Source: Bacteroidia bacterium
Lineage (GTDB): Bacteria; Bacteroidota; Bacteroidia; JAIBAJ01
Direction: 5' to 3'
Length of the DNA stretch: 64,000 nucleotides
Assembly: GCA_019695265.1 (NCBI GenBank)
Contig: JAIBAJ010000001.1
Coordinates: 34,347-98,346 of the forward strand
Made by a program: the position numbers and the translations under genes. The notes beneath the pieces were generated by a model. It did not search any database, was not told where the DNA came from, and saw only the letters and a program-made list of their open reading frames with translations. Of this stretch, positions 4,856 to 59,084 are shown in pieces. Positions within the stretch are counted from its first letter, which is position 1, and every line of letters begins with the position of its first letter.

Positions 4856-5010
4856 GGCGGGCCCCCTTCCGCCCAAAAGTTGGTTTCAAATCCGGGAATT
4901 CTGCAAGGGCGTTCGGGTCACGCTATCGGCTGTAGTCCTCGGCCCACTTGGCTAACGCCGCGTGCGCCTGTGGGCTACTTGCCTCTATCGTTGCCCGAGG
5001 TGCGAGTCCA
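4856..5010 (+). repeat. Family-1a dispersed intergenic structured repeat, copy A
   Basis: Begins with the GC hairpin GGCGGGCCCCCTTCCGCC. Core is GGCGTTCGGGTCACGCTATCGGCTGTAGTCC...CTGTGGGCTACTTGCCTCTATCGTTGCCCG. Near-identical cores at 15670-15827 (reverse complement), 23008-23160 and 49010-49170. Confidence 0.85.
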
Positions 5011-5045
5011 ACTTAAGGCAATTTTGAAAAGCTTTTCCTAGGTTT

Positions 5046-5090
5046 AACCCAAATTCCAAACGAAGTTAAACTTCTTTTGGAATTTGGGTT
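5046..5090. terminator. Near-perfect ~21-bp-stem hairpin downstream of the minus-strand giant gene; possible terminator
   Basis: AACCCAAATTCCAAACGAAGTT / AACTTCTTTTGGAATTTGGGTT pairs with one mismatch and almost no loop. It lies 43-87 bp 3' of the stop at 5133. No clear U-tract, so intrinsic-terminator status is uncertain. Confidence 0.4.
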
Positions 5091-5132
5091 AAAATGATCA
5101 TTGAAAGTTTGATTATGCAACCTTCAGGCAAA

Positions 5133-8100
5133 CTACCATTTTGTTTCGCGGTCAAAAACCTCCTTCGAAGCATTTTCACCATTTTTGAAATAGTAAATTC
5201 CACCCCAATTCCATTTCACCTTTTGGTATTCATTCACGTTGGTAGGACCTCTATTCACAATAACCCTAGTAATGGTTTTATTCGCTTCCTGAATAAGATC
5301 TTCCGAAACACCTTCCGGGTATTTTTTATACAACTCGGCCATATAATCGGCCTTGGTCTTTACTTCAGGCGCCGCCGAAACTTGTCCGTTCTTTGCTGAA
5401 TATTCAGCTTCCAATTTAGCTCTTAATTCCTTTTCGATTTGAGCTTGTTTATCCAAGGCGTCTTGCTTTGCCATTTCCTTGGCTTTTTTCTCAAATTCTT
5501 TCTTTGCCTGAAACTCTGATGCTGCCTGCCATTGTTCCTCATTGCGTTTCAAACGATCCTCGTTGCGTTGAGCCTTTTCTTTGGCATCTATTTCTTTATG
5601 CTCTGCAGCCAATCGTGCTGCTTCTTCTTTTCTCTGACGCTCCAGTTCCATTTGCCTTTCCTTCTCAGCCATTTGGGCATTTTTGGCTGAATCTCGTTTA
5701 CTTGTATCGAATGCTAGCTGATCTGCTCTTCGTTTTTGATTTGCTTCCCGTTCCGCAGTAGATTTTTCAATGAAAGTTTGTTTGGCTGCTGCATTTGCTT
5801 CCACTTGCGCATTTCTTGTCGAATCTTTATTTTCTTTTACTTCCTTCCTGTAATCCTGAGTCTTTTGATCAGCTTGAGCCTTAGCTTCCTGGTACTCTTT
5901 CAATTTCCTTTCCTTTTCGGCAGCATTGGCAGCCCTAACTGAATCTCTTATTCTAGCTTCATTAGCCAGTTGATTTTCCCTTTGTTGCTTTTCCATTGCC
6001 TTTTCAGCTTCTGAAATTTCTTTTGACAGTTGCTTTTGGCTATTAAAGGTTTGCAGGGCCGCATTTCTATTGGAATCCCTTTCTGCTTTTTGCTCCTGGC
6101 GGTATTGGTTGGTATTTTGTTTTAGGCTTTCCAATGCAACTTGGTGTTCTTCCTTCTGTCTGGCCTTTTCATTGGCTTGTGCAGTCCGAACGGAATCCTT
6201 TATTCTGGCTTCCCTTGCCAATTGTTCTTCCCTTTGTTGCTTTTCCAAAGCTTTTTCAGCTTCCGATTTCTCTTTAGATATTTGCTTTTGGTTGTTAAAT
6301 GTTTCTACTTGTGCTGTTCGGGTGGCATCCTTTTCACTTTTCTGTTGTTCCCTGTACTGATTGGTAGTTTGTTTTAGATTTTCAAGGTTTTTTTGATGCT
6401 CTAATTGTTGGCGATTCTTCTCATTTGCTTGTGCCGTACGCACCGAATCTTTAATTCTGGTTTCATTGGCCAATTGGTTTTCGCGTTTCAGTTGAAGCTC
6501 GGTTTTAGTTGCCAATGCCTTTTCTTGCGACAATTGCTTATCTGCCTCAAATTCAGTTTTTTGAGCGGTGCGGATGCTATCTTTTAAACTTCTCTGGGTT
6601 TCTCTGTAATTGGCTGTTGTGGCCAGTAATTCTTCCTTTTTACGCTGATATTCAGCCATTCTTGCATCCTTTTCCGATTGGGATTTTAGTTTAGCATTTT
6701 CCCTTTCTGCCATTTCTTCCTCTTTCAATTTGGCATTCTTCTCCTCCTGCATTTTGGTTTCCAATTCTTTACGAATTTTTCGTTCCAACTCAGCCCTTAA
6801 CGCTTCCTCAGCCTTTCTATTCTCTTCCGCGGTGGTACTTTCTACAAAAACCTCATTTTGCAAAGCCGTTCTTTCTTCGTTCGCCTCATCTGCTTTGGCT
6901 TTTTTTGCTTTCTGTTGTTCAAGGAATTGACGTTCCTTTTCCTGTTCTTCTTTTCTTCTGTTTTCTGCTTCTTCTCTGGCTTTTTGAAGAGCAGCCAATC
7001 TTGCTTCTTCTTCTTGTTTTCTTTTTTCTTCAGCTTTAATTTTCCTTGCCTGAGCCTCATCCCAAGCTTGCTGTTGGCGAATCTTCATTTCTTCAGCCGG
7101 GGTAAGTCCGGGGGATGGTTTAGAAATAACCGTTGGACTTGCTAACCTTGTATCACCTTCCTGACTTGCCTTTTGAGCAGCGGCTTCCTTGGCTTGTTGT
7201 TGAGCTTTTAATCTTTTTTCGGCTTCCAAAGCTTTTCGATCAGCTTCTTCCTGAGCAATTTGCCAAGCTTTATCGGCTTGTTCCTTTTCCAACCTTGCTT
7301 TATTCTCTGCGGCTAGTCTTTTATCCTCTTCTTCCTTGGCCTGTGCAGCAGCAATTGCTTTTTTCCGGGCTTCTTCCTGTCTTTTACTTTCCTCTGCTTG
7401 GGCTTGAGCGGCTATCAAAGCTTGTTTTTGGGCTTCTTCCTTAGCCAATTGCTCTGATTTAGCCTTTTCTTGCAACAAAAGTTCAGCTTTTTGAGCATTC
7501 TCTGCTGCCAGGCGCTTATCTTCTTCCTCTTTAGCTTTGGCAGCTTCTATTGCCCGCTTTTTGGCCTCTTCTTTCGCCTTTTGTTCAGCTTCTTTTTGAT
7601 TTTTTGCATCTGCTTCTTCTTTGGCTTTAGCTAGTTGAGCATTTTTTTTCTCCTGTTTAGCCTTTTGCAATGCCTCTTCTTTGGCAGCAGCCTCAAGTTC
7701 AGCTTTGGCTTTTGCCTCAGCAGCCAGTCGCTTTTCCTCTTCGGCTTTAGCTTTAGCAATTGCTTCTGATTTGGCCTTTTCTTCTGAGGCTTTTAAGGCT
7801 GCTTCTGCTTCAGCCTTAGCTTTGGCTTCGGCCGCTAGTCTTTTTACTTCTTCTGCTTGGGCTTTGGCGGCGGCTTCTGCCTTGGCCTTTTCCTCAGCAG
7901 CTTTTTTTGCAGCTTCTGCTTTTGCGGCAGCTTCTGCTTCCGCTTTGGCTTTGGCCTCAGCTTCGGTTTTTGCTTTGGCTTCGGCTGCTAGTCTTTTTTC
8001 TTCCTCTGCTTTGGCTTTGGCAGCGGCTTCTGCCTTGGCCTTTTCTTCCGCGGCTTTTTTTGCAGCTTCTGCTTTGGCAGCTGCTTCTGCATCCGCTTTG

Positions 8101-8906
8101 GCTTTGGCCTCTGCTTCGGCTTTTGCTTTGGCTTCGGCAACTAGTCTTTTTTCTTCATCTGCTTGGGCTTTGGCGGCGGCTTCTGCCTTGGCCTTTTCCT
8201 CAGCAGCTTTTTTTGCAGCTTCTGCTTTGGCAGCTGCTTCTGCCTCCGCTTTAGCTTTAGCCTCTGCATCGGCTTTGGCTTTGGCTTCTGCTGCTAGTCT
8301 TTTTTCTTCCTCTGCTTTTGCCTTTGCAGCTGCTGCTTCTTTTTTCTTTGCCTCTTCCAAAGCCTTTTTTTCGGCTTGAGCCTTGGCTGCAGCTTCGGCT
8401 TCCTTCTTATCTACCTCACTTTCAGCAGCTTTCTCTAGCTCTTCCTGCTTCTTTTGAAATTGCATGCTATAATCCAAGTCGTAGTTAAAATCCTGGGTTT
8501 TATTATCCCAACTAATTTTAGCAACAGGGTTGTTATAAATGGCTACACTTGTATTATCCTGTGGCTTAAACAATTCCACCACAAAAGAAAAGTCTGAAGT
8601 TCGAGCGGTACTATCATCGGGAATATTGGTTATGAATTGCAACTTTTTGGTTACATAACCCTCTTTGGAGAACTCAACAATATATTCAGTATTCAGAGCC
8701 AGCTTGTACAACAACTTCCCTGTTTCGGTGGTGGTAAATTCGTCTTCTACCTTGCCTTTTTCAATGTATTTAACTGTAACACCGGCAAGATTCTTTTTGC
8801 CATCCTTTACAACTCCCTTTATATCCAAACCTTGACCCCATGTTTGTAAGTAAAAGAACAAAAGGAACAAGGATGTTAAGAATTTCAGCCTACGTTTGTG
8901 CTGCAT
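5133..8906 (-). CDS. Giant secreted protein: signal peptide, carboxypeptidase-regulatory-like N-domain, TolA-like Ala/Glu/Lys-rich coiled-coil repeats, globular C-terminal domain
   Basis: 1257 aa. N-terminus MQHKRRLKFLTSLFLLFFYLQTWGQG then DIKGVVKDGKKNLAGVTVKY. About 260 aa of AEAKAKAEAEA..EEKRLAAEAKAK repeats with a 51-aa period, and three ~80-aa repeats (SKEISEAEKAMEKQQRENQLANEARIRDSVR). The C-terminal ~100 aa are non-repetitive. Confidence 0.7.
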   Translation of the reverse strand: MQHKRRLKFLTSLFLLFFYLQTWGQGLDIKGVVKDGKKNLAGVTVKYIEKGKVEDEFTTTETGKLLYKLALNTEYIVEFSKEGYVTKKLQFITNIPDDSTARTSDFSFVVELFKPQDNTSVAIYNNPVAKISWDNKTQDFNYDLDYSMQFQKKQEELEKAAESEVDKKEAEAAAKAQAEKKALEEAKKKEAAAAKAKAEEEKRLAAEAKAKADAEAKAKAEAEAAAKAEAAKKAAEEKAKAEAAAKAQADEEKRLVAEAKAKAEAEAKAKADAEAAAKAEAAKKAAEEKAKAEAAAKAKAEEEKRLAAEAKAKTEAEAKAKAEAEAAAKAEAAKKAAEEKAKAEAAAKAQAEEVKRLAAEAKAKAEAEAALKASEEKAKSEAIAKAKAEEEKRLAAEAKAKAELEAAAKEEALQKAKQEKKNAQLAKAKEEADAKNQKEAEQKAKEEAKKRAIEAAKAKEEEDKRLAAENAQKAELLLQEKAKSEQLAKEEAQKQALIAAQAQAEESKRQEEARKKAIAAAQAKEEEDKRLAAENKARLEKEQADKAWQIAQEEADRKALEAEKRLKAQQQAKEAAAQKASQEGDTRLASPTVISKPSPGLTPAEEMKIRQQQAWDEAQARKIKAEEKRKQEEEARLAALQKAREEAENRRKEEQEKERQFLEQQKAKKAKADEANEERTALQNEVFVESTTAEENRKAEEALRAELERKIRKELETKMQEEKNAKLKEEEMAERENAKLKSQSEKDARMAEYQRKKEELLATTANYRETQRSLKDSIRTAQKTEFEADKQLSQEKALATKTELQLKRENQLANETRIKDSVRTAQANEKNRQQLEHQKNLENLKQTTNQYREQQKSEKDATRTAQVETFNNQKQISKEKSEAEKALEKQQREEQLAREARIKDSVRTAQANEKARQKEEHQVALESLKQNTNQYRQEQKAERDSNRNAALQTFNSQKQLSKEISEAEKAMEKQQRENQLANEARIRDSVRAANAAEKERKLKEYQEAKAQADQKTQDYRKEVKENKDSTRNAQVEANAAAKQTFIEKSTAEREANQKRRADQLAFDTSKRDSAKNAQMAEKERQMELERQRKEEAARLAAEHKEIDAKEKAQRNEDRLKRNEEQWQAASEFQAKKEFEKKAKEMAKQDALDKQAQIEKELRAKLEAEYSAKNGQVSAAPEVKTKADYMAELYKKYPEGVSEDLIQEANKTITRVIVNRGPTNVNEYQKVKWNWGGIYYFKNGENASKEVFDRETKW
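5930..6650. repeat. Three tandem copies of a ~240-bp repeat inside the giant CDS (encode ~80-aa repeats)
   Basis: Nucleotide segments starting near 5941, 6181 and 6421 are highly similar, e.g. ...ttctggcttcccttgccaattgttcttccctttgttgcttttcca... recurs. Confidence 0.7.
7690..8340. repeat. About four near-identical tandem copies of a 153-bp repeat inside the giant CDS (encode 51-aa AEK repeats)
   Basis: gctttggcRgcggcttctgccttggccttttcYtcMgc... recurs at about 7861, 8011, 8161 and 8311 with very few substitutions. Confidence 0.8.
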
Positions 8907-8966
8907 CGATTTTCGATTTCAAATAAAAGTTTACAAATATCGTCCAATTCAAATTAGAAACCAAAA

Positions 8967-12502: not shown

Positions 12503-12671
12503 GGTATCATAAATGGAGCGCGAAGGTAGTGGAATATATGTTCTAACCAGCTAACTTGGTTCCTATTCACCTTGGATTAACAAAACAGGCAGAAAGTTTA
12601 ATATACCTTTCACCTAATTTATACTTCCTTAACAGTCAATCCACTATACATTTTCATGCCGGTAAACAGAC

Positions 12672-15017: not shown

Positions 15018-15445
15018 AAGTTCGCATCCTAAACCGCTCTCATCATCCATTGCCTTCGTATGAAACTGCTGCTGCAGCAGGCATGGATTTACGAGCCAAT
15101 TTAGATGAACCTATCGTACTTAAACCCTTAGAACGAGCCTTGGTGCCAACCGGTTTATATATGGAAATTCCGGTGGGATTTGAAGCTCAGGTGAGGCCCC
15201 GAAGCGGTTTAGCGGCCAAAAAAGGAATTACCGTTTTGAATTCTCCCGGTACCGTTGACGCCGATTACCGTGGCGAGGTGAAGGTGATTTTAGTGAATCT
15301 TTCGAACGAAAATTTCATCGTGAACGATGGGGAACGAATTGCGCAGTTGGTAATTGCGGCCCATGCTCAGGCCGAATGGGTTGAAGTAAATGAATTAAGC
15401 GAAACCGATCGGGGAGCAGGAGGATTTGGCAGTACAGGAAAATAA
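15014..15445 (+). CDS. dut: dUTP diphosphatase
   Basis: [21 protein letters not shown] and the [11 protein letters not shown] motifs are diagnostic of Dut. 143 aa. Confidence 0.92.
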
Positions 15446-15460
15446 TTTTTTGTTTCCTTT

Positions 15461-15610
15461 GGCGGGTCCCATTCGCAGAAATTTTGTGCCTTTTTCGAAG
15501 TATTTCCGGGCTCATGGTCGGGCTTTCGGCGTTACTCCTCGGCCCACTTGCTAGCGCCGCGTGGTCCTGTGGGGTAACTGCCTCTATCCCTACCCGACGG
15601 TACCCCTGAG
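15461..15610 (+). repeat. Family-1 (1b-like) intergenic structured repeat, copy B1
   Basis: GGCGGGTCCCATTCGC...ATGGTCGGGCTTTCGGCGTTACTCCTCGGCCCAC...CTGTGGGGTAACTGCCTCTATCCCTACCCG. It shares its 5' and 3' modules with the interrupted copy at 31530-31771. Confidence 0.8.
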
Positions 15611-15669
15611 CTTGGTAAACTTTAACCCACTTCAGGAACTTGAAATGTTCTATCCAAAATAGTCCTATT

Positions 15670-15827
15670 GGGGCTTGCACCCTCGGGCAACGATAGAGGC
15701 AAGTAGCCCACAGGACACCTACGGCTTTAGCCTAGGTGGACGAGGACTACAGCCGAAAGCGTGACCCGAACGCCAATGCATTTATGATGGGGATTTGCAA
15801 AAAGCCAGGATGGCGGAGGGGGCCCGC
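15670..15827 (-). repeat. Family-1a repeat, copy B2, in inverted orientation to B1
   Basis: Its reverse complement matches copies A, C and F almost base for base (GGCGTTCGGGTCACGCTTTCGGCTGTAGTCCTCGTCCACCTAGGCTAAAGCCGTAGG...CTACTTGCCTCTATCGTTGCCC). It ends with GGCGGAGGGGGCCCGC. Confidence 0.85.
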
Positions 15828-15863
15828 ATAAAAACCAACTTAATCTTCAAAAAACCAACCGAA

Positions 15864-17249
15864 TTAGTAGCCCAAATCGCCTCGTACATAAATAAGTTCC
15901 ATCACCCCTTTGATGAACTTGGCCCGGTACTCGGCCAGCTTTAATTCCGCATCCATCCAGCGGGTTTCGCGGGTGTTGAGCAAAAACAGACTGCTTTCGC
16001 CGGAGTCAAACTTCATTTTCTCGGCCGACAAAAGTTGCTTACTGAGGCGGGCATTTTGCTCTGCATTGGACAATTGCTGACTAAGGATGTTCAGGTTTTT
16101 TTGAATTACCTCCAACTTCAGGTCCAATTCATTCCGTTTGGTGGTTAAATCGAGGGCATTGTTTTGGAGATTCAACTTCGCAATTTTATAATCGTTTCGG
16201 GCCGAACGAAGCAGCAAAGGCATAGCAAACTGCACCCCCCACTTGTAATTGGAGGTATTAAAGAGGGCGTTGGAAGAAGGCGAATTACCAAGAAAATTGT
16301 ACTTCACGTCCAACTTGGGTTTAATCATTTCGGCTCTAAACTTTTTTTCCACCTCCAGAACTTGTTGATAGGCCTGGTACTTAGAAATTTCGGGATTCAC
16401 TTGAGGTCCGGCGGCCAACAATTGCAAATATTTGGTTTTCATCCAATTATAAGTTTGTTCCAAACTATCTTCCACGGCCAAAGTGCCACGCATGGAGAAT
16501 TCCTGATTGGGGGCCAACCAATTTTGAGCAAGCAGAAAATTCTCCACTTTATTCAAATCCATTTTTACGCTTTGCACTTGCAGGAGGCGGCTTTGCAGGA
16601 GAATAAAGGCTTCGACCGAATCGATTGCGGCATTTTCGCCAATTTCGGCCAAGGATTTTATGCCTTGAAAGCGTTTATCGGCCAGGTCGAGAAAGTAAGT
16701 AGAAAGACTAAGTTCCTTAAGAGTAAAAATCCAATCGAAATATGCTACAGAAGCCTGGTAGAGAAGTTCGTTCTGCAAACGGTTTTTCTCGGCATCGTAG
16801 TACTTTTCATAGCCTTTAGCTTTCAGCAATTCGGCTCGGCGCTTGTCAATGAACATTCCTTGTCCGAGGGCGGTTTCCACTCCAATAAATGGCAATCCGG
16901 CAGCGGGAGTTTTCTCTTCAGGATTGAGGTAAACCCCTTGTGAAAAGCCATAACCTGCTGAAAGGTATTGAGAAGCGAACAAAGGTTGTTTAACCTGGAG
17001 ATTAAGGACTGAATAGTAGTTTTTACCATCGAAGGTTTTGTTATCGAAATCGCCCGACAAGAATGGATCGAACCCGCCTTGGGCTGAGCGTTTAGCCAAA
17101 CGGCCCATTTCTCCAACATTATTGGCTTTTTGAAACAAAGGGTGATTGGACTTAACCCTTTCCAGGAATGCTTGAAAGCCGAGGTTTTCCTGAGCTTTTG
17201 TTTGAAGTGCCAGGAAGGAAAGCAGGAACAGAAGGAGTTTATTTTTCAT
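15864..17249 (-). CDS. TolC-family outer membrane efflux protein
   Basis: Signal peptide MKNKLLLFLLSFLALQTKAQE, about 460 aa of helical/barrel repeats typical of OEP/TolC. The start overlaps the upstream HlyD gene stop by 11 bp, which indicates an operon. Confidence 0.75.
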   Translation of the reverse strand: MKNKLLLFLLSFLALQTKAQENLGFQAFLERVKSNHPLFQKANNVGEMGRLAKRSAQGGFDPFLSGDFDNKTFDGKNYYSVLNLQVKQPLFASQYLSAGYGFSQGVYLNPEEKTPAAGLPFIGVETALGQGMFIDKRRAELLKAKGYEKYYDAEKNRLQNELLYQASVAYFDWIFTLKELSLSTYFLDLADKRFQGIKSLAEIGENAAIDSVEAFILLQSRLLQVQSVKMDLNKVENFLLAQNWLAPNQEFSMRGTLAVEDSLEQTYNWMKTKYLQLLAAGPQVNPEISKYQAYQQVLEVEKKFRAEMIKPKLDVKYNFLGNSPSSNALFNTSNYKWGVQFAMPLLLRSARNDYKIAKLNLQNNALDLTTKRNELDLKLEVIQKNLNILSQQLSNAEQNARLSKQLLSAEKMKFDSGESSLFLLNTRETRWMDAELKLAEYRAKFIKGVMELIYVRGDLGY

Positions 17250-19584
17250 TTTTACCCTCCTTCGAATCCAGGCTTTTGGTTTGTGGTTTATAGAATTCGG
17301 GCGGGAAACCATTGATTTTTCGCCAAATTTCGTACACTACCGGAACTTCTTTCAGTATTAATATTCCTTTTACCCCACTACCAACCTGAATAGAAACCGG
17401 CCAAGATTCACTATCCTTTTTAGCCAGCACTCGAAACTTACCATTGGGAGAAATTACCTTATCTACCGACACCACGGTAGCCTGGTAGGTACCAAAACTG
17501 ATACCGGGCCAACCGCTAAACACAAAGGCCGGCCAGCCATCGAACGTAAGCTGCATGGATTGTCCTTTTTCCACTAATGGAAGATCCATGGGTTCAATAT
17601 AAACCTCTACGGAATAATTACCCAGGTTAGGAACAAAGCTTACCAAGGCTTCACCTTCTTTGGTTAAATCACCAACACCTTGTTTAAAGGTACGGGTAAT
17701 AAATCCATCCTGGGGGCAAAGCACATAGTAATAAGAATTTCGAATGCTATAGTTTGACAATTGGTTTTGCATTTTTGTTAATCCCGCTTCGGCATCATAG
17801 AGCGTTGATAAAGTGGAGAACTTTTCAGATTCGGCCTTCATCAGCTTTTCGTTGTATTCCTGTTTAATGGCATTCAGTTCAATGTAAGCATTGGTAAGGT
17901 CATTTTTAGAAATCATAAATTTGTTTTCAGCCTCAATTACTTTGGCATGGCTATCTTGCAATTTAGCTTTACGGTTTTCAAAATCAGTTTTTGAAATTAC
18001 CCCTTTGCTCAGGAGGGATTCAAAACGTTGAAATTGTTCCGAAGTAATGGTGTAATTATTGGCGATGGAAGCATAGTTTGCACTATCGGATTTTACTTTA
18101 CCCTGCATTTGGGTTACTTTGTTTTTAACCTGCTGCATTTTAAGCGGATAAGCCTTGTTGATGGCATCTATTTGCGCATCGATGGAATTAATTTTACTTT
18201 CATAGGAATGGATGGAAGATTCTTTTGAATTGACCTGAGCCTGGGTTCTTTCCACCAATTTAGGATCCATATAATCCTCTTTAATTTCTGAAATCAAGGC
18301 AATGGTATCTCCTTTTTTAAGGAAATCACCTTCCTTAATAAACCAACGTTCGATACGACCCGAAATACGGGAGGTAATGTTTTGGGGGCGATCGGTAGGA
18401 TTCAAGGTGGTAACTGCACCTTCCGACTGAATGGTTTGGTTCCAAGGCAGAAAGAGGGTTATGATGGAAATTCCACCGATTGTATAAAGTATGGTTTTAA
18501 TTTTCTTTGAATAGGTGTGGTTATAAATTCTATCGAGAAAACGTTTGTAAAGTCCATCGTACTTCAGGTGGGTTTGATAATCTTCCTGTTGATCTAATTC
18601 CAGCACTTGGTATAGCTTTTCCGTAGCGGTTAGAACATCATAAATGGTACGAAGCTCCACAACAATTTTCTCGACACCATTAATAATGAGAACCACCAAA
18701 ATTTCAGAAGCCACAAATTGGCCGATATTAAGCAAACCCCATTGAACGAAAAGCACACCAACCAGAAGAATGAGTGAAGTAAACAATACCTTAAATAGGA
18801 GAATGCTTTTGAACTGCAATTCCAGAATTTGAAAATTTTTGGTTTTGGTTTCCAGGTAATGGCTCAATTTTTCTTCGGTTTCATGAAAAATAAAGGGAGC
18901 ATCCATGGTTTTATCCTGGTTCTTTAAACCAATAAAAACATTTTGCAACCAATCAACAAACTGGTATTTTCGTTTTGATTCATTCAAGCTAGCCTCCATA
19001 GAACGTTGTCCATAGTATCGAAGCAAAAAATAATACAACACCGAAACTACAAGGGTAAAAGACAAAAAAAGAGGGCTGTATGCCGATAGAATCAGTAAAC
19101 AAAAGGCGATACTTATAGCGGCAAATGAAATATCAATGAGAATTTTAGTAAGTCCTTTTTGAAGGGTTAATACATCGAAAAACTGGTTTATTTTACTTGG
19201 GATGTATTCATTGAGGTAAAGATCCGATTTAAGGTGGGCTACTTTTTCGGCAAATTTTACTCCAAAAAACACCAAAATACTTTGCTGAATGGTCTCATTT
19301 ATTCTCATTTGCCAAAGCTGGAATGCAGAAACAAAAACCAGACAAAGAATAGTGAGTGTGCAGAGTAAGAACAAGGACGACGATAACTTACCGGTCATGG
19401 TATAGGTTACAACGGCTTGAATTCCGAGAGGAACCGCTACATAAAAAAGGCTTTGCAGGGCCGAAAGGAGATAAATTCGACGAATATTTGCCCGAAGGGG
19501 TTGGAGCAATTGCAGGAGTCTGTTTAATTCAATCATGGTTTGCAAAAGTACACACGGATTTGAAAATGATAGTATTGCTATCAT
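17239..19584 (-). CDS. Fusion protein: N-terminal ABC-exporter transmembrane domain (no ATPase domain) + C-terminal HlyD-family membrane fusion protein
   Basis: The first ~330 aa are a 6-TM ABC_membrane-like domain ending in the canonical TMD-NBD linker ATEKLYQVLELDQQED. It runs directly into an HlyD N-terminal TM helix (ILYTIGGISIITLFL), the biotinyl/lipoyl-like hairpin motif (IKEGDFLKKGDTIALISE) and a long coiled coil. No Walker A/B or ABC signature motif is present. Confidence 0.6.
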   Translation of the reverse strand: MIAILSFSNPCVLLQTMIELNRLLQLLQPLRANIRRIYLLSALQSLFYVAVPLGIQAVVTYTMTGKLSSSLFLLCTLTILCLVFVSAFQLWQMRINETIQQSILVFFGVKFAEKVAHLKSDLYLNEYIPSKINQFFDVLTLQKGLTKILIDISFAAISIAFCLLILSAYSPLFLSFTLVVSVLYYFLLRYYGQRSMEASLNESKRKYQFVDWLQNVFIGLKNQDKTMDAPFIFHETEEKLSHYLETKTKNFQILELQFKSILLFKVLFTSLILLVGVLFVQWGLLNIGQFVASEILVVLIINGVEKIVVELRTIYDVLTATEKLYQVLELDQQEDYQTHLKYDGLYKRFLDRIYNHTYSKKIKTILYTIGGISIITLFLPWNQTIQSEGAVTTLNPTDRPQNITSRISGRIERWFIKEGDFLKKGDTIALISEIKEDYMDPKLVERTQAQVNSKESSIHSYESKINSIDAQIDAINKAYPLKMQQVKNKVTQMQGKVKSDSANYASIANNYTITSEQFQRFESLLSKGVISKTDFENRKAKLQDSHAKVIEAENKFMISKNDLTNAYIELNAIKQEYNEKLMKAESEKFSTLSTLYDAEAGLTKMQNQLSNYSIRNSYYYVLCPQDGFITRTFKQGVGDLTKEGEALVSFVPNLGNYSVEVYIEPMDLPLVEKGQSMQLTFDGWPAFVFSGWPGISFGTYQATVVSVDKVISPNGKFRVLAKKDSESWPVSIQVGSGVKGILILKEVPVVYEIWRKINGFPPEFYKPQTKSLDSKEGKNEK

Positions 19585-22944: not shown

Positions 22945-23007
22945 TTCTACCTAAAGATTGCCAAAAAGTCAAATGACGAATCGGCTAGATTTTAAAATAC
23001 GTTTTAT

Positions 23008-23160
23008 GCGGGCCCCCTCCGCCTTACCCTAACTTTGCTAAACCCCAAAATGCTTGCATGGGCGTTCGGGTCACGCTTTCGGCTGTAGTCCAAGCCCACT
23101 CCGCTAAACGCTGCGTTGGCTTGGAGCTACTTGCCTCTATCGTTGCCCGATGCGAAACCT
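23008..23160 (+). repeat. Family-1a repeat, copy C
   Basis: GCGGGCCCCCTCCGCC...GGCGTTCGGGTCACGCTTTCGGCTGTAGTCCAAGCCCACTCCGCTAAACGCTGCGTTGGCTTGGAGCTACTTGCCTCTATCGTTGCCCG. The central stem shows compensatory substitutions relative to the other copies. Confidence 0.85.
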
Positions 23161-23460
23161 CAACCGGTAGTTTCTAACCCAACTTGTCTTTGTAACACCA
23201 ATGTTATTTAAACCCAAAATTCTGCATTAGAAATCGTGATGAGGCTTTCAAATACAACAAAGACAGGGGCTTCAAGGTAATTTTTGGGTAAAGAAATAGT
23301 GAACTATTTTGAAAATCACAGTGGTAACTGCCGATGCAAACACTGTTTAGGCAATATATTTCAAAGTATCCATGCACTAATCCGGATTTACAAACAGTTC
23401 AAGTGCCTAAAAGAGCAAAGAGTCGCTAGGCTTAATTTAATCCCGGAAGCAAACTTCCCA

Positions 23461-31529: not shown

Positions 31530-31771
31530 GGGTTTAGCCGGGTAGGGATAGTGGCAGTTATACCGAATGGACATTATGTTTAGTCCAATTTTAGGTATTA
31601 ATTCCTATTGAAAAATAGGCCTAACATACTGTATACTCGGCATTTACCAATTTTAATTTATAAAAGCCTTCGGACTATTTATAAATTAAAATTGGTATAA
31701 CGCCGAAAGCCCGACCATTCGCCTTCCTTGGTTTGGATTAGGCACTGCTTTTGGTGCGAATGGGACCCGCC
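31530..31771 (-). repeat. Family-1b repeat, copy E, interrupted by a family-2 element
   Basis: The reverse complement reads GGCGGGTCCCATTCGC...ATGGTCGGGCTTTCGGCGTTA, then the family-2 insert, then TAACTGCCACTATCCCTACCCGG. The flanks align with copy B1 (15461-15610). Confidence 0.8.
31561..31697 (-). repeat. Family-2 repeat (about 137 bp), nested inside family-1 copy E
   Basis: Near-identical to 39965-40102. It carries a perfect 20-bp inverted repeat TACCAATTTTAATTTATAAA / TTTATAAATTAAAATTGGTA with a 13-nt loop. Confidence 0.85.
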
Positions 31772-37106: not shown

Positions 37107-37148
37107 TTAAACATTTATTTTTAGAAGAATTTTTTATTTTTTTTGGAT

Positions 37149-37295
37149 GCGGGTACCTTCGCATGGGCTTTGCACAGTGAACAAAGTTGAGTAAGGCTCA
37201 GGTCCGGGCTATTCGTTCCAAGTCCTCGCTGCCTAGGCTATCGCCGTAGGCAGCTGTGGGCTTTCCACTGCTATCCCTACCCGGGGTGCAAAGCC
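37149..37295 (+). repeat. Family-1b repeat, copy D
   Basis: GCGGGTACCTTCGCAT...GGCTCAGGTCCGGGCTATTCGTTCCAAGTCCTCGC...CTGTGGGCTTTCCACTGCTATCCCTACCCGG. The reverse complement of 58944-59084 aligns along its whole length. Confidence 0.8.
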
Positions 37296-37683
37296 TAAAT
37301 GTAGTGCTTTGAATCGAGGTATAAGGGTTGCCGAACCAAACTTATACCTTGCAAACAACCAAACCCCAGATGGCTTGGAAGCCTACAGCCCCTAAGCTAA
37401 ACCCGGTAGAGCCAAATAGCTTTGCCACCCCGAAAAGCCCGTGAAAAGGCATGAACTTGGATGGCAAACTATGGGCGATAACGGGGATGAAGATTTTTCG
37501 GGCAGCTAACCCTCGTTTTCAAAAAAAACAAACAACTTCTTATTATTCTAAGCCTTATGTAACTTTTGTAGCTAAGCAACGGGGACCAAGCAACTACATT
37601 TGCCGATATTAATCAATTTAGGTTTTACCTTTACTTGGCTTCCGGAATGAAAAATCCAAGTACATTGGCGGCCTGAGTTAAAG

Positions 37684-38493: not shown

Positions 38494-38504
38494 GATAATA
38501 TAAG

Positions 38505-39914: not shown

Positions 39915-39964
39915 AATAGCATCGAAAATAAAAACTACAGGCACGCTGAAAAACACGGCAAGTA

Positions 39965-40102
39965 ATACCAATTTTAATTTATAAATAGTCCGAAGGCTTT
40001 TATAAATTTAGATTGGTAAATGCCGAGTATACAGTATGTTAGGCCTATTTTTCAATAGGAATTAATACCTAAAATTGGACTAAACATAATGTACATTCGG
40101 TG
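39965..40102 (+). repeat. Family-2 repeat, copy 2
   Basis: Near-identical to the reverse complement of 31561-31697. It ends 3 bp before the stop codon (40106-40108) of the convergent gene. Confidence 0.85.
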
Positions 40103-40105
40103 TAA

Positions 40106-40675
40106 CTACTCAGACTCCAGACATAAAAAAGGAAAACGACTTTTCAAACGAGGCAAATCTCGCTCTTCAACCGGTAAAAACTTCCAACTTTCGCCGTTGC
40201 CCGAAATTGCAATTAAAAAACGATCGGTAAGAACCTCTTCCCCTCCGGGAGATTTTATAAAAGAAGTTCTTTGTTTGAGTAAACATTGATATTCCTTATT
40301 GCAAAAGAAAATTTTACCTTTTCCTAACACTTCAAAACCACGCAATTGAAGATGAAGCGAATCCAAGTCTTGCTTATAGTTTTTGTGTTCCGATTCAAAC
40401 TCTTCAAAAACCTGAGTACCCAAGGCAAAAGGATGGAAATAAAAATAAACCGTTTTTAAATCATTCTCTTGAATGGCCTTGTTTCGCAGGTTTAACTCCC
40501 TTTCAATCCTATTTCGCAACCACTCATTGTGCTGAATCAGTGCATTGGCATTGGTAACCGAATCTGTTTGAGCATGTGCAACCGACCACCCTATAAAAAA
40601 CAACACCATTGACGGAAAAAATCGACGCAACAAAAGCAAGTAACTCATACTTTTTTTATTCAACTTAGATAACAA
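40106..40675 (-). CDS. Hypothetical secreted protein
   Basis: 189 aa with a signal peptide (MSYLLLLRRFFPSMVLFFIGWSVAHAQ). No recognisable family. Confidence 0.5.
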   Translation of the reverse strand: MLSKLNKKSMSYLLLLRRFFPSMVLFFIGWSVAHAQTDSVTNANALIQHNEWLRNRIERELNLRNKAIQENDLKTVYFYFHPFALGTQVFEEFESEHKNYKQDLDSLHLQLRGFEVLGKGKIFFCNKEYQCLLKQRTSFIKSPGGEEVLTDRFLIAISGNGESWKFLPVEERDLPRLKSRFPFLCLESE

Positions 40676-48437: not shown

Positions 48438-48456
48438 AAAAATGGTAACAAGTTTC

Positions 48457-49009: not shown

Positions 49010-49170
49010 GGCGGGCCCCCTTCCGCCAACCACCCTTCTTGCCAAATTTTCAAGGCTAAGCACATGGCGTTCGGGTCACGCTATCGGCTGTAGTCCTCGT
49101 CCCCCTAGGCTAAAGCCGTAGTGGGCCTGTGGGCTACTTGCCTCTATCGTTGCCCGGGCACTCCGAACCT
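49010..49170 (+). repeat. Family-1a repeat, copy F
   Basis: GGCGGGCCCCCTTCCGCC...GGCGTTCGGGTCACGCTATCGGCTGTAGTCCTCGTCCCCCTAGGCTAAAGCCGTAGTGGGCCTGTGGGCTACTTGCCTCTATCGTTGCCCG. Confidence 0.85.
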
Positions 49171-49242
49171 GGCTCCTGCAAGCCTCTAAGCTTTTACCTC
49201 TTCCACTAACTACCAACCGTTGAAATCTTTACCCAACCCGGC

Positions 49243-50709: not shown

Positions 50710-50730
50710 AACTCCTAAAACCCGGTTTGC

Positions 50731-51684: not shown

Positions 51685-51704
51685 GTTCAATACCTCTTCC
51701 GGTT

Positions 51705-52724: not shown

Positions 52725-52727
52725 TTC

Positions 52728-54100: not shown

Positions 54101-54269
54101 GGTCTCACAAAGGTAATACCGATTGATTATGTAGTATCGACCAAAAATTTAAGCTAGTCAAAAACAATGGAAGCCATATTGGATTAGCCAATAGGGCAGT
54201 TACTTAATGAACATGGGTATAACAGAAAAAACCAACAAGCCAAGCTAAACCATTACCAGCCAGCTTAGA

Positions 54270-54803: not shown

Positions 54804-54901
54804 TTTATTTTCTCAAAAATAGGCTTTGAACCAGATAAAAATAAAACAGTCCGGTGAAGAAGTATCAACCGGACTGTGTTTATTTAGCTTTTACGCTGGA
54901 A

Positions 54902-56719
54902 CTATCCATTCATGGAAATTAAGAATTCTTCGTTGGAACGAGAATCTTTTATCCGATCCCTTACAAATTCCATTGCTTCCAATGGTGTCATATCTGACAA
55001 ATGGTTTCGCAATACCCAAATTTTTTGCAGCATTTCCTTACCCACTAATAAATCATCGCGGCGTGTGCTAGACGATACAATATCAATTGCAGGGTAAATA
55101 CGTTTGTTGGAGATTCGACGATCCAATTGTAATTCCATGTTACCGGTACCTTTAAACTCTTCAAAAATTACCTCATCCATTTTAGAACCGGTATCAATCA
55201 AGGCGGTAGCGATGATGGTTAAGGAACCACCGTTTTCAATTTTTCGGGCCGACCCAAAAAAACGTTTAGGCTTTTGAAGTGCATTAGCCTCCACCCCACC
55301 CGATAATACTTTTCCGGAAGCCGGAGCTACGGTGTTGTATGCACGAGCCAATCGAGTGATACTGTCGAGCAAAATCACCACATCGTGGCCCACTTCCACC
55401 AAGCGTTTGGCCTTTTCTAATACGATATTGGCAATTTTTACATGCCTATCAGCCGGTTCATCGAAAGTAGAAGATATTACTTCGGCATTCACACTTCTAG
55501 CCATATCGGTAACCTCCTCCGGCCTTTCATCAATCAGCAGAATAATTAAATATACTTCCGGATGATTAGCTGCTATAGCATTGGCTACATCCTTCAACAA
55601 AACTGTTTTACCGGTTTTTGGCTGAGCCACAATAAGACCTCTTTGGCCTTTTCCAATTGGGGCAAACAAATCCATGATACGGGTACTGATATTTCCCGCA
55701 GGTCCGGTTAAATTCAGTTTTTCATCCGGGAACAAAGGAGTTAAAAAATCGAAAGGAACACGATCCCGTACATTTTGTGGTTCGCGTCCATTGATAAATT
55801 CTACCTTTATTAACGGGAAGTACTTTTCTCCTTCACGCGGAGGACGCACTGTACCTTGCACGGTGTCCCCAGTTTTTAAGCCAAATAATTTAATCTGGCT
55901 TTGACTAACATACACATCATCCGGAGAACTTAAATAATTATAGTCAGAAGAGCGAAGGAAACCATAACCATCCGGCATAATTTCTAAAACCCCTTCAGTT
56001 GATACAATACCATCAAAATTATAAAGCAACTCATCAATTTGCTGCTTGCGATCTTTTTGAGGGAAAGCTTGCTGATACGCTGCATTTCTGCCTCCTGCAA
56101 TAGCTTGAGGATTACCCGAATTTTGTGCAACAGGTTGAGCTTGGCTTGTTGCTCCCTGATTTTGACCTTGATTTTGACCTTGATTATCGTTTCTGTCGTA
56201 CCGTTGACGAGGATACCTTTCTCTGCGTTGATACCCTTGACCCTCTGCAGATGCCGGAACTTCCGGAGCAACTGCCGGTTTCTCTTCAACACCTTCAGCG
56301 CTTGGAGAAACAGCATTTTCAACCGGAGTTTTTACCTCTTGCACGGGCTCAACCACCTCTGCCACCGGAGCTTCGGAAACAGGTATAATTTCCACCTCTT
56401 CCAATACAGGTTTAGTTGGTTCTTCAGCAAACAAATCCTTAGGCACAACAGGTTCCGGAGTTGATACTGCCGGTTCTGATTTGCGGGGACGTTTTGCCTT
56501 TGACTTTGCAACTTCTTCGGCTACCGGAGTCGCAGCCTTTTCCGCTTTTACCGGTTCTGCTTCTGCCTTATGCTTTTTAGGCTGTTTTTTCCATTCATGT
56601 ATGGCATCGATTAATTCTTGCTTACGCATAATTTCGAAACCTTCTATACCTGATTCTTTGGCAATTTTCTTTAAATCGGCCACCATCATGTTGGCCATAG
56701 CATCCAAACTAAAATCCAT
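54902..56719 (-). CDS. rho: Transcription termination factor Rho (with Bacteroidota-type N-terminal insertion)
   Basis: Rho_N region, then a low-complexity insertion of about 200 aa. The ATPase core has the Walker A motif QPKTGKT and the RecA-like Q- and R-loop motifs. 605 aa. Confidence 0.92.
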
Positions 56720-57247
56720 CCAGAAAAAATATTTTGATTAAAGACACAAAAACTGTGTGGGTAGTGATAAACTAAAGGAATAAGTGAAAAAATTGATTTA
56801 GCGACGTGCTAACTGATTCAGCGAATCGGCCGCAATATTACAACAAAATTCTAAACCACAAAATTTCTTTTGGAATATCCACCAAATGCCAAAACATACT
56901 ACTACCTTTTCTGCATAAGTTCAAATGAAATGGAATGTTAAAGGACTGTTTACAACTTGTCTATTCGCTTTTGAATTCCTTTTCAGAAAGAATAACCGGG
57001 CAATTACCCATACTGCCATTTTCAACCTGGTACTAATTCTAACCGTCAGGCTCTTTTTGAACTAAACCAAAATTAGAAGGGCGGTAACCCACATTCACCG
57101 GAAAAACATAGACACCATCAACCCGAAAAATCATTTTCATACTATTTAAATTGCTAAAATTCAACAACTTAATCTCAAAAATCCGCCAATTACTTCTTGC
57201 TGAGTCGAATCAGTTTTCAATTCCCAGGATTTCTCTAATTTCGCTGC

Positions 57248-57700
57248 ATGATTCAAAGGATTCAAAGCATCTTTTTAGGCATTGCCGCCCTTTTCTTACT
57301 TTCTACCGTTTTTTTACCTGTTGCTGATATGATTCGAGATGGTCAAACCATGGGTATTATGTTGTCGGGGTTGGTTGACGAAGAAACCGGCCTCTTTGAA
57401 CAAAACCTTTGGCAACCAACCCTCTGCTTTCTGTCTGCATTTTTGGCCATAGCAACCATTTTTATGTATACGGATCGCGATCGTCAAATGCGAATTACCA
57501 AACTAAACCTGGTTCTGGCTTTCATTTTATCAATTACTACCCCCCTGATGGCCAGAATGGAAATTTTAAAAGATACTGATTTAGTCGTATTTAAATTTCC
57601 GGTGGTTTTCCCGGCAGTGGCAGTCATTTTATTGTATTTAGCTTTAAGAGCTATAAAAAAGGATGATGATCTAGTTAAATCAGCCGATCGCTTGAGATAA
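57248..57700 (+). CDS. DUF4293-family membrane protein
   Basis: 150 aa with 4 TM helices. It is the conserved neighbour divergent from rho in Bacteroidota. Confidence 0.55.
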   Translation: MIQRIQSIFLGIAALFLLSTVFLPVADMIRDGQTMGIMLSGLVDEETGLFEQNLWQPTLCFLSAFLAIATIFMYTDRDRQMRITKLNLVLAFILSITTPLMARMEILKDTDLVVFKFPVVFPAVAVILLYLALRAIKKDDDLVKSADRLR

Positions 57701-57709
57701 TTATTACCC

Positions 57710-58912
57710 GTGCGTATTCTCCAAATTTGTTCCAAACCACCTTATCCGGCAGTTGATGGTGGTTGTGTTACTTCCATCTCCCTTGCAAATTCCCTTTTAG
57801 GCAATGGACATTCGCTTAAACTGTTTTGCCTATCAACCTTTAAACACCCTTACCTGCCTGAACAATTTCCACCTCAGTTTTTAACTGAAACAGATTTAGA
57901 ATGTGTTCCGGTTGAAATTGAGGTAAAAATTTTCCCGGCTCTGCTAAGTCTATTTGATAGCGGAAGTTACAATGTTGACCGTTTCTTTTCACCACTGGCC
58001 GACCAAACACTGATTCGGATTATTACTGAAGAAAATTTTGATTGCATAATTCTGGATGGACTTTATTCATCGGTTTACCTGCAAGGTTTGCAATATTATT
58101 CCAAGGCAAAAATTATTCTGCGTCAGCACAACATCGAATTTATGGTGTGGAAGACCCTTGCAGAAAAAGAAAAAAACCCAGTTAAAAAGTACTTTTTCCA
58201 GCACTTGTCTCAAAAGCTTGAAAAATACGAACATTCCATCCTCAAGGAGGTAGATGCCGTTATAGGAATCTCAAAGGAAGAAACGGATGTTTTCCATTCT
58301 TTAACCGAAAAACCTTGTTATTGGATTCCTACCGGCATGAAAACCGGAAAACATTTGCCCAACTACAACCAAGTAGCTTGCCAATTTGTTGGAAGCATGG
58401 ATTGGACACCCAATAGCGAAGGCGTGTTGTGGTTTTTAAACGAAATATGGCCATTGCTCTTGGCAAAACTACCTCAAGCTCAGTTTTTTTTGGCGGGAAG
58501 AAGCATGCCCTCAGCCATTCAAAACATCGACTTACCCGGATTTGAAAAACTGGGTTACGTTGAAAACCTGGATGAATTTTGGAGAAAATCGGGAGTTTTA
58601 GTTGCGCCTTTGTTATCGGGGGGAGGTTTAAAAATTAAGATTATCGAAGCCATGATGCATGGCTTGGCAGTTGTTACAACACCACACGGGGCTGAAGGAT
58701 TGCCCGGTTTACCCGGAAAAGATTACTTAGTTGCTGAAAATGCAAAGGATTTTGTGGAAATTTTGTCAAGGCTTTTGCCCGATGTTACTCAAAAAGAAAC
58801 ACTTGGAAAAAATGCTCGATGTTTGGCCCAACAGCATTTTGGAGAAAAAGAAATAGGCGACAAATGGAACCGAGTGGTACTCGAAACTTGTTACAACACC
58901 CCCACCGGTTAA
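57710..58912 (+). CDS. Glycosyltransferase family 4 (GT-B fold)
   Basis: The C-terminal region (GGGLKIKIIEAMMHGLAVVTTPHGAEG, E-x7-E-like) is typical of GT4/GT1. Confidence 0.7.
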   Translation: MRILQICSKPPYPAVDGGCVTSISLANSLLGNGHSLKLFCLSTFKHPYLPEQFPPQFLTETDLECVPVEIEVKIFPALLSLFDSGSYNVDRFFSPLADQTLIRIITEENFDCIILDGLYSSVYLQGLQYYSKAKIILRQHNIEFMVWKTLAEKEKNPVKKYFFQHLSQKLEKYEHSILKEVDAVIGISKEETDVFHSLTEKPCYWIPTGMKTGKHLPNYNQVACQFVGSMDWTPNSEGVLWFLNEIWPLLLAKLPQAQFFLAGRSMPSAIQNIDLPGFEKLGYVENLDEFWRKSGVLVAPLLSGGGLKIKIIEAMMHGLAVVTTPHGAEGLPGLPGKDYLVAENAKDFVEILSRLLPDVTQKETLGKNARCLAQQHFGEKEIGDKWNRVVLETCYNTPTG

Positions 58913-58943
58913 CAACCCAAGATTGCTTTCTTGCAGGATTTTT

Positions 58944-59084
58944 GGGGCTTGTCCGGGTAGGGATAGGAGTGGATAGCCCACAGCCCCAAACACTTTTGGG
59001 GCGAGGACTAGGAACGGATAGCCCGGGCCTGAGCCAATAAAAACTAGTAACCATCTGTTAACCCTATGCGAAGGCACCCGCATA
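58944..59084 (-). repeat. Family-1b repeat, copy G
   Basis: The reverse complement (TATGCGGGTGCCTTCGCAT...GGCTCAGGCCCGGGCTATCCGTTCCTAGTCCTCGCCCC...CTGTGGGCTATCCACTCCTATCCCTACCCGG) aligns with copy D. Confidence 0.8.

Follow-up and report, generated by a model that had tools for sequence, protein, structure and literature searches.

A family of GC-rich intergenic repeats in a Bacteroidia genome with a three-way-junction fold and an arm related to the Flavo-1 motif

Copies of the repeat in a 64-kb window

A 64,000-nt stretch from the genome of a Bacteroidia bacterium (contig JAIBAJ010000001.1 of assembly GCA_019695265.1, positions 34,347 to 98,346; hereafter the window) contains a family of GC-rich intergenic repeats, each roughly 140 bases long and built as a three-way junction with a basal clamp (P1) and two arms (P2 and P3). 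A search of the window with the covariance model R1, run with filters off, finds nine loci: seven full copies, one copy interrupted by a MITE (miniature inverted-repeat transposable element), and one diverged locus that consists of a single arm. The full copies score 72-100 bits (E 3e-16 to 4e-23). The GC content of the copies is 55-62%, compared with 41% for the window, and a degenerate 30-mer from the conserved 3' side matches the window six times, where 0.00 matches are expected from 100 shuffles. Pairwise identity among the copies in the window is only 39-77%, which points to an old and diverse family. The loci are listed below, with the parts of the junction given for copy A.

4846-4855, plus strand: T-rich leader immediately 5' of copy A, an example taken from the flank profile
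4856-4998, plus strand: copy A, subfamily 1a, full three-way junction (R1 100 bits, E 4e-23), at a convergent gene junction; the nearest co-oriented open reading frame (ORF) ends 215 nt upstream
4858-4862, plus strand: 5' strand of P1 in copy A, CGGGC, with its partner at 4993-4997
4863-4917, plus strand: P2 arm of copy A (5' strand 4863-4873, variable loop 4874-4906, 3' strand 4907-4917), carrying a 3x3 internal loop
4920-4991, plus strand: P3 arm of copy A, a long irregular hairpin with conserved internal loops, the part homologous to Flavo-1
4993-4997, plus strand: 3' strand of P1 in copy A, GCCCG
15461-15597, plus strand: copy B, hybrid type (98.8 bits); the stop codon of a dUTPase gene (Pfam) lies 15 nt upstream
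15683-15828, minus strand: copy C, subfamily 1a (87.2 bits), 35 nt past the stop of an outer-membrane efflux protein gene, 15864-17312(-)
23007-23150, plus strand: copy D, subfamily 1a (72.4 bits), 62 nt past the stop of a FAD-binding protein gene
31530-31771, minus strand: copy E, degenerate, interrupted and of hybrid type (repeat search, sequence and a weak R1 match); the stop of a UvrD-like helicase gene lies 17 nt upstream
37148-37284, plus strand: copy F, subfamily 1b (87.5 bits), sense, between tandem genes, 41 nt past the stop of an MBL-rhodanese gene
49010-49157, plus strand: copy G, subfamily 1a (87.4 bits), in a divergent intergenic region; a VWA-domain gene begins 94 nt downstream
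58953-59085, minus strand: copy H, subfamily 1b (83.5 bits, R1 match at 58953-59082), antisense between tandem plus-strand genes
62588-62653, plus strand: diverged P3-only relative (27 bits, E 6.9e-5, model positions 63-133), 60 nt past the stop of a gene for a protein of 1116 amino acids

All of the copies listed except the last had been proposed by a first-pass annotation made from the sequence alone, and R1 and the repeat search place them within a few bases of where it had put them; the P3-only relative had been missed. The proposed division into two subfamilies holds up: the copies at 4856, 15683, 23007 and 49010 belong to 1a and those at 37148 and 58953 to 1b, with the copies at 15461 and 31530 being hybrids. 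The compensatory change that had been cited for the copy at 23008 is present in the upper P3 helix of copy D (TCCAAGC/GCTTGGA). Copies B and C form a tail-to-tail pair between the dUTPase and efflux-protein genes. In copy E, the 5' part (P1, P2 and the start of P3) lies at 31702-31771, and the 3' end of P3 with the P1 partner strand at 31530-31555; the upper part of P3 is replaced by an unrelated AT-rich MITE of 146 nt (31556-31701), and the fragment 31670-31771 is matched by R1 at E 0.04. The P3-only locus retains the internal-loop sequences, and its helices covary (CCG/CGG and AATGCC/GGCATT).

Copies of the repeat also generate spurious ORFs. For example, two ORFs of 121 amino acids each, at 15315-15680(-) and 58766-59131(-), run across copies B and H. 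Both are likely to be artefacts of the GC-rich sequence, and an annotation could list them as hypothetical proteins.

The family is abundant in a related genome, the complete 4.43-Mb chromosome OZ260106.1 ('uncultured Bacteroidia bacterium CRY1-m2-bin03'). A scan with an exact pattern over one genome per species returned at least 120 stretches; among the matches listed, about 100 stretches come from OZ260106.1, and the others come from Aquimarina, Ulvibacter, Luteirhabdus and a Cyclobacteriaceae metagenome-assembled genome. In 800 kb of OZ260106.1, taken as 8-kb blocks that each hold at least one exact match, a model scan finds at least 162 copies. Together with the nine loci in 64 kb described above, this bears out the earlier remark that the density is unusually high. 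The copies are spread across all 4.4 Mb of the chromosome and over both strands, beside housekeeping genes. An integron attC array was considered and rejected, since the copies are dispersed on both strands and not clustered.

The three-way junction and its covariation

In the layout of more than 100 copies, the element is a closed three-way junction. P1 is a clamp of 5 bp in which GGCGGGY pairs with the 3'-terminal RCCCG, and its partners track each other: TACCCG is found opposite GGCGGGT, and TGCCCG opposite GGCGGGC. P2 is formed by the 9-12 bases that come next and by those immediately ahead of the core, and it encloses a variable loop of 35-45 nt (examples of its two strands are CCTTTTCGCC/GGCGAAAAGG, CCCAGCCGC/GCGGCTGGG and TGCTTTCGCC/GGCGAAAGCA). 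P3 is a conserved, long irregular hairpin of 70-90 nt with near-invariant internal loops, GCUAUYCG and CUAUCC, and two invariant wobble pairs (U.G and G.U). The junction strands measure 1, 2 and 1 nt. The 5' end had previously been read as a terminal hairpin, GGCGGGCCCCCT(T)CCGCC, standing before the core. A local hairpin is ruled out by the pairing of P1 and P2 across copies: the first half of the motif is the 5' strand of P1, whose partner is RCCCG at the 3' end, and the second half is the 5' strand of P2, whose partner is GGCG..GGG just before the core.

Covariation was assessed in three alignments. In a MAFFT seed of 50 copies, 90.6% of the cells are paired compared with 39-49% in slid controls, and there are 194 double changes compared with 74 after shuffling. 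In 150 model-aligned copies from the related genome, 93.5% are paired (39-49% in slid controls), with 684 double changes against 229; in 74 distinct compact copies from unrelated metagenomes, on contigs retrieved by a pattern confined to the 5' side of P3, the figures are 94.6% (38-52% when slid) and 315 against 104. In the last two, fitting of the alignment to the model favours the structure; the MAFFT seed is free of that bias. Covariation is strong in all three, and the compensatory change that had been claimed for a structured, GC-rich intergenic family is real.

The covariation extends over all three helices. A model-free test of P2 finds complementarity at nine of nine positions in 50 of 129 copies, and double changes occur at all P2 pairs in both the 150-copy and the metagenome sets. 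In the metagenome set, covariation is seen at each of the five P1 pairs, and the closing pair of P1 alternates between C-G and U-A (27/16 in the seed alignment, 92/40 in the 150-copy alignment). The helices of P3 covary as well (G-C/A-U, G-C/C-G and U-A/A-U), and its internal loops and two wobbles are almost invariant.

The wobble pairs also indicate which strand folds. In P3, U.G is found in 149 of 150 long copies and G.U in 142 of 150; in compact copies the counts are 69 and 67 of 73. Where pairs vary, there is a 4-7-fold excess of G.U over A.C, with counts of 122 and 18 in long copies and of 68 and 16 in compact ones, although the count for the long form drops to about 33 against 14 when ambiguous apical pairs are left out. 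On the opposite strand these wobbles would be C.A or A.C mismatches, which argues that the hairpin-first strand (T-run, GGCGGGY ... RCCCG) is in all probability the better-folding one. Our confidence in this is good and not complete, because the model-based alignment may add some G.U pairs. UNCG tetraloops in P2 had been considered as a sign of RNA and were dropped, since their register is ambiguous: the stem can be read as 3 bp closed by a triloop or as 2 bp closed by a tetraloop.

Flanks of the element

Every copy is preceded by a T-rich leader. Over 157 copies, T is found at position -3 in 89% and at -2 in 94%, and T or A at -1 in 98%; TTT|GG is the conserved 5' junction, and purines predominate in the 3' flank. 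A strong terminator hairpin before the leader T run is absent in about 150 of the 157 copies (mean z -0.1). With such a hairpin in only about 5 of 157, the leader was rejected as the U tract of an upstream terminator; a Bacteroidetes promoter in the leader was also rejected, as its profile does not fit TAnnTTTG. The element itself does not have the form of an intrinsic terminator, since its T run lies 5'.

Flank profiles reveal neither a target duplication nor a terminal inverted repeat (TIR) beyond the 5 bp of P1. A classical MITE, with a TIR of at least 10 bp and a target-site duplication (TSD), was rejected, given that only P1 is inverted and that the flanks share no duplication; a TIR and a TSD are both present in two further families of this DNA. 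No clean empty site was seen at two syntenic blocks between the window and the related genome, or at the dUTPase locus in four genomes; synteny breaks or the intergenic DNA cannot be aligned.

In the long form, a loosely conserved tail of 40-60 nt (..GTGC..CGTGCCCGGTTTTTGGTG..), similar to the P2 loop, follows the 3' strand of P1; examples in the window lie at 4999-5040 and 37285-37320. The tail may represent a partial duplication, a fourth part of the structure or a motif for binding. Directly 5' of many copies there are pyrimidine-rich simple repeats, (TTCTCAC/TTTTCTC)n or CCCCAATTTTTAATTTTTAATT (for example L216 3010-3045, L218 3012-3056 and L219 2712-2786, and also in L012, L026, L035 and L049). 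The length of this leader microsatellite varies even between strains with an identical dUTPase.

Compact relatives and constraint at single loci

Compact versions of the element, 75-120 nt long, are widespread in Bacteroidota. In these, P2 is cut down to a short hairpin or a few bases. In five species of Aquimarina, an element of 84 nt beside the lepA start is almost invariant, while its flanks cannot be aligned; this shows constraint at one orthologous locus. A conserved box beyond this element, TATCTTTG, resembles a lepA promoter.

Three orthologous pairs of copies were compared between OZ260106.1 and contigs of the JGI sample 3300043333. The P2 loop has eight changes and the apical loop of P3 one, and the stems have one uncompensated change and two compensated flips from T-A to A-T. 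This pattern is consistent with purifying selection on pairing, with gene conversion as an alternative.

Relation to Flavo-1

Flavo-1 (RF01705) is a candidate non-coding RNA from Bacteroidetes that was put forward in 2010 (Weinberg et al. 2010, PMC2864571), and it is listed among the most abundant small RNA (sRNA) families (PMC9029176). In the transcriptome of Flavobacterium psychrophilum, its matches lie sense, antisense or outside transcribed regions, and no function was inferred (PMC9723704).

At the Rfam gathering threshold, which is 42 bits for RF01705, the element is unmatched in the window, at 11 loci from other Bacteroidota and at 18 loci of the related genome. With permissive thresholds and short stretches, P3 aligns to Flavo-1 over model positions 1-76, and the loop residues are conserved. 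Three copies match in this way, with E from 1e-3 to 2e-5: a compact metagenome copy (32.1 bits), copy F (31.6 bits, E 3.5e-5, minus strand, 37198-37285) and copy H (26.5 bits, E 8.8e-4, plus strand, 58952-59032). All three are under the cut-off and opposite to the folding orientation. Copies of subfamily 1a have no Flavo-1 match even at E<=10, and an Rfam scan over copies B and C at E<=10 returned only noise. The first-pass annotation had assigned the element to no named family, which is not supported. It had also given a clear match to a described repeat or Rfam family as grounds for refutation, and such a match is half present: the conserved arm of 1b and compact copies clearly relates to Flavo-1, but no copy reaches the gathering score.

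The likeness to Flavo-1 lies in the same helix layout and in three internal loops of P3 (GAU.G.AG.GGAA... / ...CGGA.AGC). Both are restricted to Bacteroidota, multicopy and intergenic, and without an assigned function; published matches of Flavo-1 are also found in both orientations relative to transcripts. The differences are that the hairpin is here one arm of a junction, with the covarying P1 and P2 outside the Rfam model; that the wobbles, as judged from sequence, put the folded strand opposite to that of Rfam; and that the copies described here are GC-rich, occur about once per 5-7 kb and take a fixed position after stop codons. By these comparisons of sequence and layout, the family is an extended, GC-rich, lineage-amplified variant of the orphan motif Flavo-1.

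No tRNA- or tmRNA-like feature was found, and viral contigs have no match to the element, leaving a phage origin unsupported. A literature search for the sequence strings returned nothing, general searches on repetitive extragenic palindromic (REP) and MITE elements in Bacteroidetes turned up no account of the element, and it is not among the entries in the REP tables of Quentin et al. 2018 (PMC6006769). The HDV-like, hammerhead, hatchet and twister ribozymes were rejected because of their topology and the absence of Rfam matches.

Placement relative to genes

In the window, six of the eight copies other than the P3-only locus have a co-oriented gene before them, 15-62 nt away for five and 215 nt away for the sixth. 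This agrees with the REP- or BIME-like distribution at 3' gene ends that had been proposed; the single copy in a divergent region, at 49010, is also as the first-pass annotation had stated. In the related genome, where gene context was taken from crude ORF calls, the 5' neighbour is a co-oriented gene for 90 copies and a divergent gene for 48. The element follows the stop codon at a median of 46 nt (interquartile range 27-78), and the next start is a median of 394 nt away. Where two neighbours are separated by less than 1.5 kb, they are tail-to-tail in 22 cases, head-to-head in one and tandem in none. This tail-to-tail rule implies that each copy belongs to the gene preceding it. Given the sense placement 15-80 nt behind stop codons, the transcript of the upstream gene should read into the copies.

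A possible link to RAYT transposases

No repeated protein family lies beside the copies in the 800 kb of the related genome, so that a multi-copy transposase is not seen; there is also no TnpA or TnpB gene beside any copy. A motif scan of this DNA identifies one HUH/Y gene, at L075 1470-2114(-). It is a REP-associated tyrosine transposase (RAYT) by NCBIfam, under the cut-off of that model, and its homologues are named 'REP element-mobilizing transposase RayT'. The gene is flanked on both sides by inward-facing copies of the element, and the same layout is found in two metagenome contigs (L121 and L122) with a RAYT that is 88% identical. 'Atypical secondary structures' have been reported around Bacteroidetes RAYT genes (Quentin et al. 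2018, PMC6006769).

The canonical REP hairpin of this RAYT clade seems to be GTAGAGACGCAAAATTTTGCGTCTCTAC. One homologue among those at 57-65% identity sits in arrays of a canonical double-foot REP, GTAGAGACGCAAAATATTGCGTCTCTAC. This REP occurs once in the 800 kb and the window together, inside the RAYT gene; the GTAG REP of the clade is not amplified in the related genome. The link between the element and RAYT is a lead and not a finding.

Three side observations concern these genes. At L123 (3117-3977 and 4276-4307), arrays of GTAGAGACGCAAAATATTGCGTCTCTAC with a period of 57 nt surround and enter a RAYT gene. A single GTAGAGACGCAAAATATTGCGTCTCTAC REP is translated in frame within the RAYT of L075 and L121 (..VETQNFASLR..). 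RAYT homologues that are 56-57% identical to that of L075 lie between hsdS and hsdR in type I restriction-modification operons (metagenome contigs L125-L130 and L222-L225), in overlapping or abutting frames, which suggests a domesticated role.

Other repeats and features in the same DNA

A second repeat family has the ends TTTAACCCA(A/G)ATTA.GCATTAGAAAT. It forms a perfect palindrome of 51 nt at 5043-5093; elsewhere it takes the form of a MITE, about 190 nt long and bounded by terminal inverted repeats. Further sites in the window are at about 23205-23240 onward and at 15612-15625, and others are L072 5370-5530, L075 2260-2450 and L218 3285-3470. This family interrupts one junction copy, at L072; it also occupies a site in OZ260106.1 that lacks it in a close relative (L218 compared with L216).

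The AT-rich MITE of 146 nt that interrupts copy E has two copies in the window, 31556-31701 and 39962-40107 (inverted), which are 97% identical. It also occurs in L003, L106 and L218 (3280-3590), and it seems to have a TTA/TA target duplication; in L218 it is nested with the MITE bearing terminal inverted repeats.

An ORF of 1257 amino acids in the window, 5133-8906(-), contains tandem repeats of 153 nt (7648-8354), has a strongly skewed composition and gives no Pfam match. Between two conserved genes whose products are 84-92% identical in amino acids, the related genome has an insert of 590 nt (L039 5830-6360, compared with window 62529-62729); the insert comprises a CCCCAAGTTA tandem repeat and an ORF fragment, and the window has the P3-only hairpin there instead. 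The contig CBDIPL010000005.1 ('Sediminibacterium sp. CRY1-m2-bin07', 94.8 kb) contains stretches identical to OZ260106.1, including the flanks (L002, L005, L016, L027, L058 and L101). The same DNA seems to be present in two bins from the same sample that carry different taxonomic labels.

Comparison with known repeat systems

The element resembles the REP, BIME and REPIN sequences associated with RAYTs in being extragenic, GC-rich and structured, with hundreds of copies at 3' ends and convergent junctions, no TIR or target duplication, and pairing that is kept among diverse copies; in the related genome, a single-copy RAYT lies between inverted copies at one locus. However, REPs are simple hairpins of 20-40 nt with a 5' GT[AG]G, while the element is a three-way junction of 140 nt. 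The tetranucleotide varies here (GTAG, CTAG, CAAG, CAAA), with GTAG found only in 1a and the position covarying. Furthermore, the cognate REP of the RAYT clade seems to be a different, double-foot hairpin of 28 nt, and the association with a RAYT is found at one orthologous locus only.

There is also a likeness to the palindrome-associated transposable elements (PATEs) of the IS200/IS605 group, which lack a TIR and TSD, have structured ends, insert 3' of a short AT-rich motif and depend on the HUH Y1 family. Here, in contrast, there is no replication-strand bias (72 against 61), the two arms are unlike each other, and no tnpA or tnpB accompanies the copies in the 800 kb. The enterobacterial ERIC/IRU elements and bcr1, from the Bacillus cereus group, are repeats of 120-155 nt that are transcribed with their neighbours and form long imperfect hairpins with compensatory changes. 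ERIC is a single long hairpin, and bcr1 has a TTTAT target duplication. Neither ERIC nor bcr1 is known to have a sequence relation to the element, and neither is known to combine a three-way junction with an arm conserved across a phylum.

Interpretation

The reading that we favour, and hold tentatively, is that this is a REP-like element acting as a folded module of the 3' untranslated region (UTR), with P3 as the platform for a putative factor. One strand, the reverse of the orientation given by Rfam for Flavo-1, would fold into the closed three-way junction. As copies lie in sense orientation 15-80 nt past stop codons, the upstream transcript would run into them and the module would fold in the 3' UTR. 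The conserved loops and wobbles of P3 look like a recognition platform for a conserved Bacteroidota factor, and the module would most likely protect or process the 3' end of the mRNA, as REP elements do in E. coli. It may have spread as DNA by means of a trans-acting enzyme, for which the flanked RAYT is the sole candidate seen.

Several observations weigh against this reading. In strictly tandem gene contexts, the long form is sense 38 times and antisense only 24 times, a weak bias (p about 0.1), and compact copies between tandem genes are antisense in 25 cases and sense in 11, counts that are not fully independent because some compact loci are related to each other. At lepA in Aquimarina, the box beyond the element would place the reverse complement of the element inside the lepA leader. 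At least one copy (L216) has a canonical terminator about 250 nt downstream of it, so that the element is not needed as a 3' end. Interrupted copies are tolerated (31530-31771 in the window, and L072), and the sense, antisense and untranscribed positions of published Flavo-1 matches (PMC9723704) point in the same direction. As for the proposed spread, L075 and L121/L122 share synteny and therefore count as one observation; no copies lie near the RAYT homologues at 57-65% identity; and a RAYT is absent from all 96 compact loci and from the window. When copies are assigned by the two GC-skew domains of OZ260106.1, 72 run with the leading strand and 61 against it, without the replichore bias predicted for lagging-strand transposition of single-stranded DNA.

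The points on spread bear equally on the main rival view, which we consider unlikely though serious, in which the repeat is a purely selfish, REPIN-like DNA element with no role as RNA. The folded top strand would be bound at P3 by the RAYT and cut at the T-run/GGCGGG and RCCCG borders, and copies would be harmless behind genes. The inward-facing copies around the RAYT in L075 and L121/L122 fit this view, as do the GTAG...CTAC at the foot of the upper P3 helix in subfamily 1a, the lack of TIRs and target duplications together with a conserved TTT|GG junction (as in REP and IS200/IS605), and the published atypical structures near Bacteroidetes RAYT genes (PMC6006769). It is also helped by the finding that the canonical double-foot REP of this RAYT is present only once, within the gene itself. 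Yet there is only one orthologous locus, more distant RAYTs lack copies and one of them sits in canonical REP arrays, and neither the compact loci (0 of 96) nor the replichores (72 against 61) show what would be expected. Stem-preserving evolution at orthologous loci would be surprising for neutral junk, although gene conversion could mimic it, and the strict tail-to-tail arrangement with respect to genes argues for a coupling to transcription. An element moved by retroposition, similar to a short interspersed element (SINE) on the Rfam strand with the purine-rich tract as a 3' tail made by reverse-transcriptase slippage, is barely credible by comparison. Length-polymorphic tracts of the (TTCTCAC/TTTTCTC)n or AATTTTT type at the T-run end, which vary between strains with identical flanking genes, would suit it; there is no target-site duplication, no reverse transcriptase is seen near any copy, the wobbles favour the other strand, and the same simple repeats occur elsewhere in intergenic regions.

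A further rival is that the copies are independently transcribed sRNA genes, serving for example as sponges or as partners of RNA-binding proteins and driven by a promoter in the T-rich leader. Strand asymmetry and conserved wobbles fit such RNAs, many compact copies are divergent from one neighbour and convergent with the other, as is typical of sRNAs, and Rfam classes Flavo-1 as an sRNA. This is nevertheless improbable, as the -7 box TAnnTTTG does not fit (the required A is present in 6% of copies), no terminator follows the element, several of the compact copies have a canonical terminator directly at their 5' edge that leaves no room for a promoter, and sRNA genes would not usually form hundreds of diverse paralogues at the ends of genes. 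A little less probable again is an architectural or protein-binding site at the DNA level (nucleoid, topology or replication), in which extrusion of the hairpin is incidental. Published Flavo-1 matches are independent of orientation and often untranscribed (PMC9723704), the orientation bias flips between compact and long forms, and P3 is pseudo-symmetric with CUAU and GC steps on both strands; however, recognition of a duplex explains neither the covariation of three helices nor the excess of G.U over A.C, and the tail-to-tail rule ties orientation to the neighbouring gene. Unconventional terminators or attenuators would also account for copies just after stops, and consensus terminators are not enriched in the window (23 compared with 22.6 expected). 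This is very improbable, given that the T run precedes the structure on either strand, that a canonical terminator lies downstream of the L216 copy, and that some copies are in promoter regions or antisense.

Significance

It is tempting to speculate that Flavo-1 is not an sRNA gene at all, but the recognition arm of a three-way-junction element found throughout Bacteroidota and folding on the strand opposite to that of Rfam, which in some lineages forms REPIN-like populations of several hundred copies with a single RAYT and has been co-opted as a 3' UTR module. This is a doubtful proposal as it stands; if true, the orphan Flavo-1 would gain a mechanism, and the Bacteroidota an equivalent of the REP-RAYT system with a much more complex substrate.

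Flavo-1 is abundant in the sRNA listings of Rfam and has been without a function since 2010, and the copies described here are invisible to standard Rfam annotation. In this lineage they reveal the Flavo-1 hairpin as an arm of a larger junction, indicate the strand that folds, and link the motif to the 3' ends of genes. With a possible tie to a RAYT, this gives the family three testable hypotheses: that it may be a stabiliser of 3' UTRs, a RAYT substrate, or a platform for a P3-binding protein.

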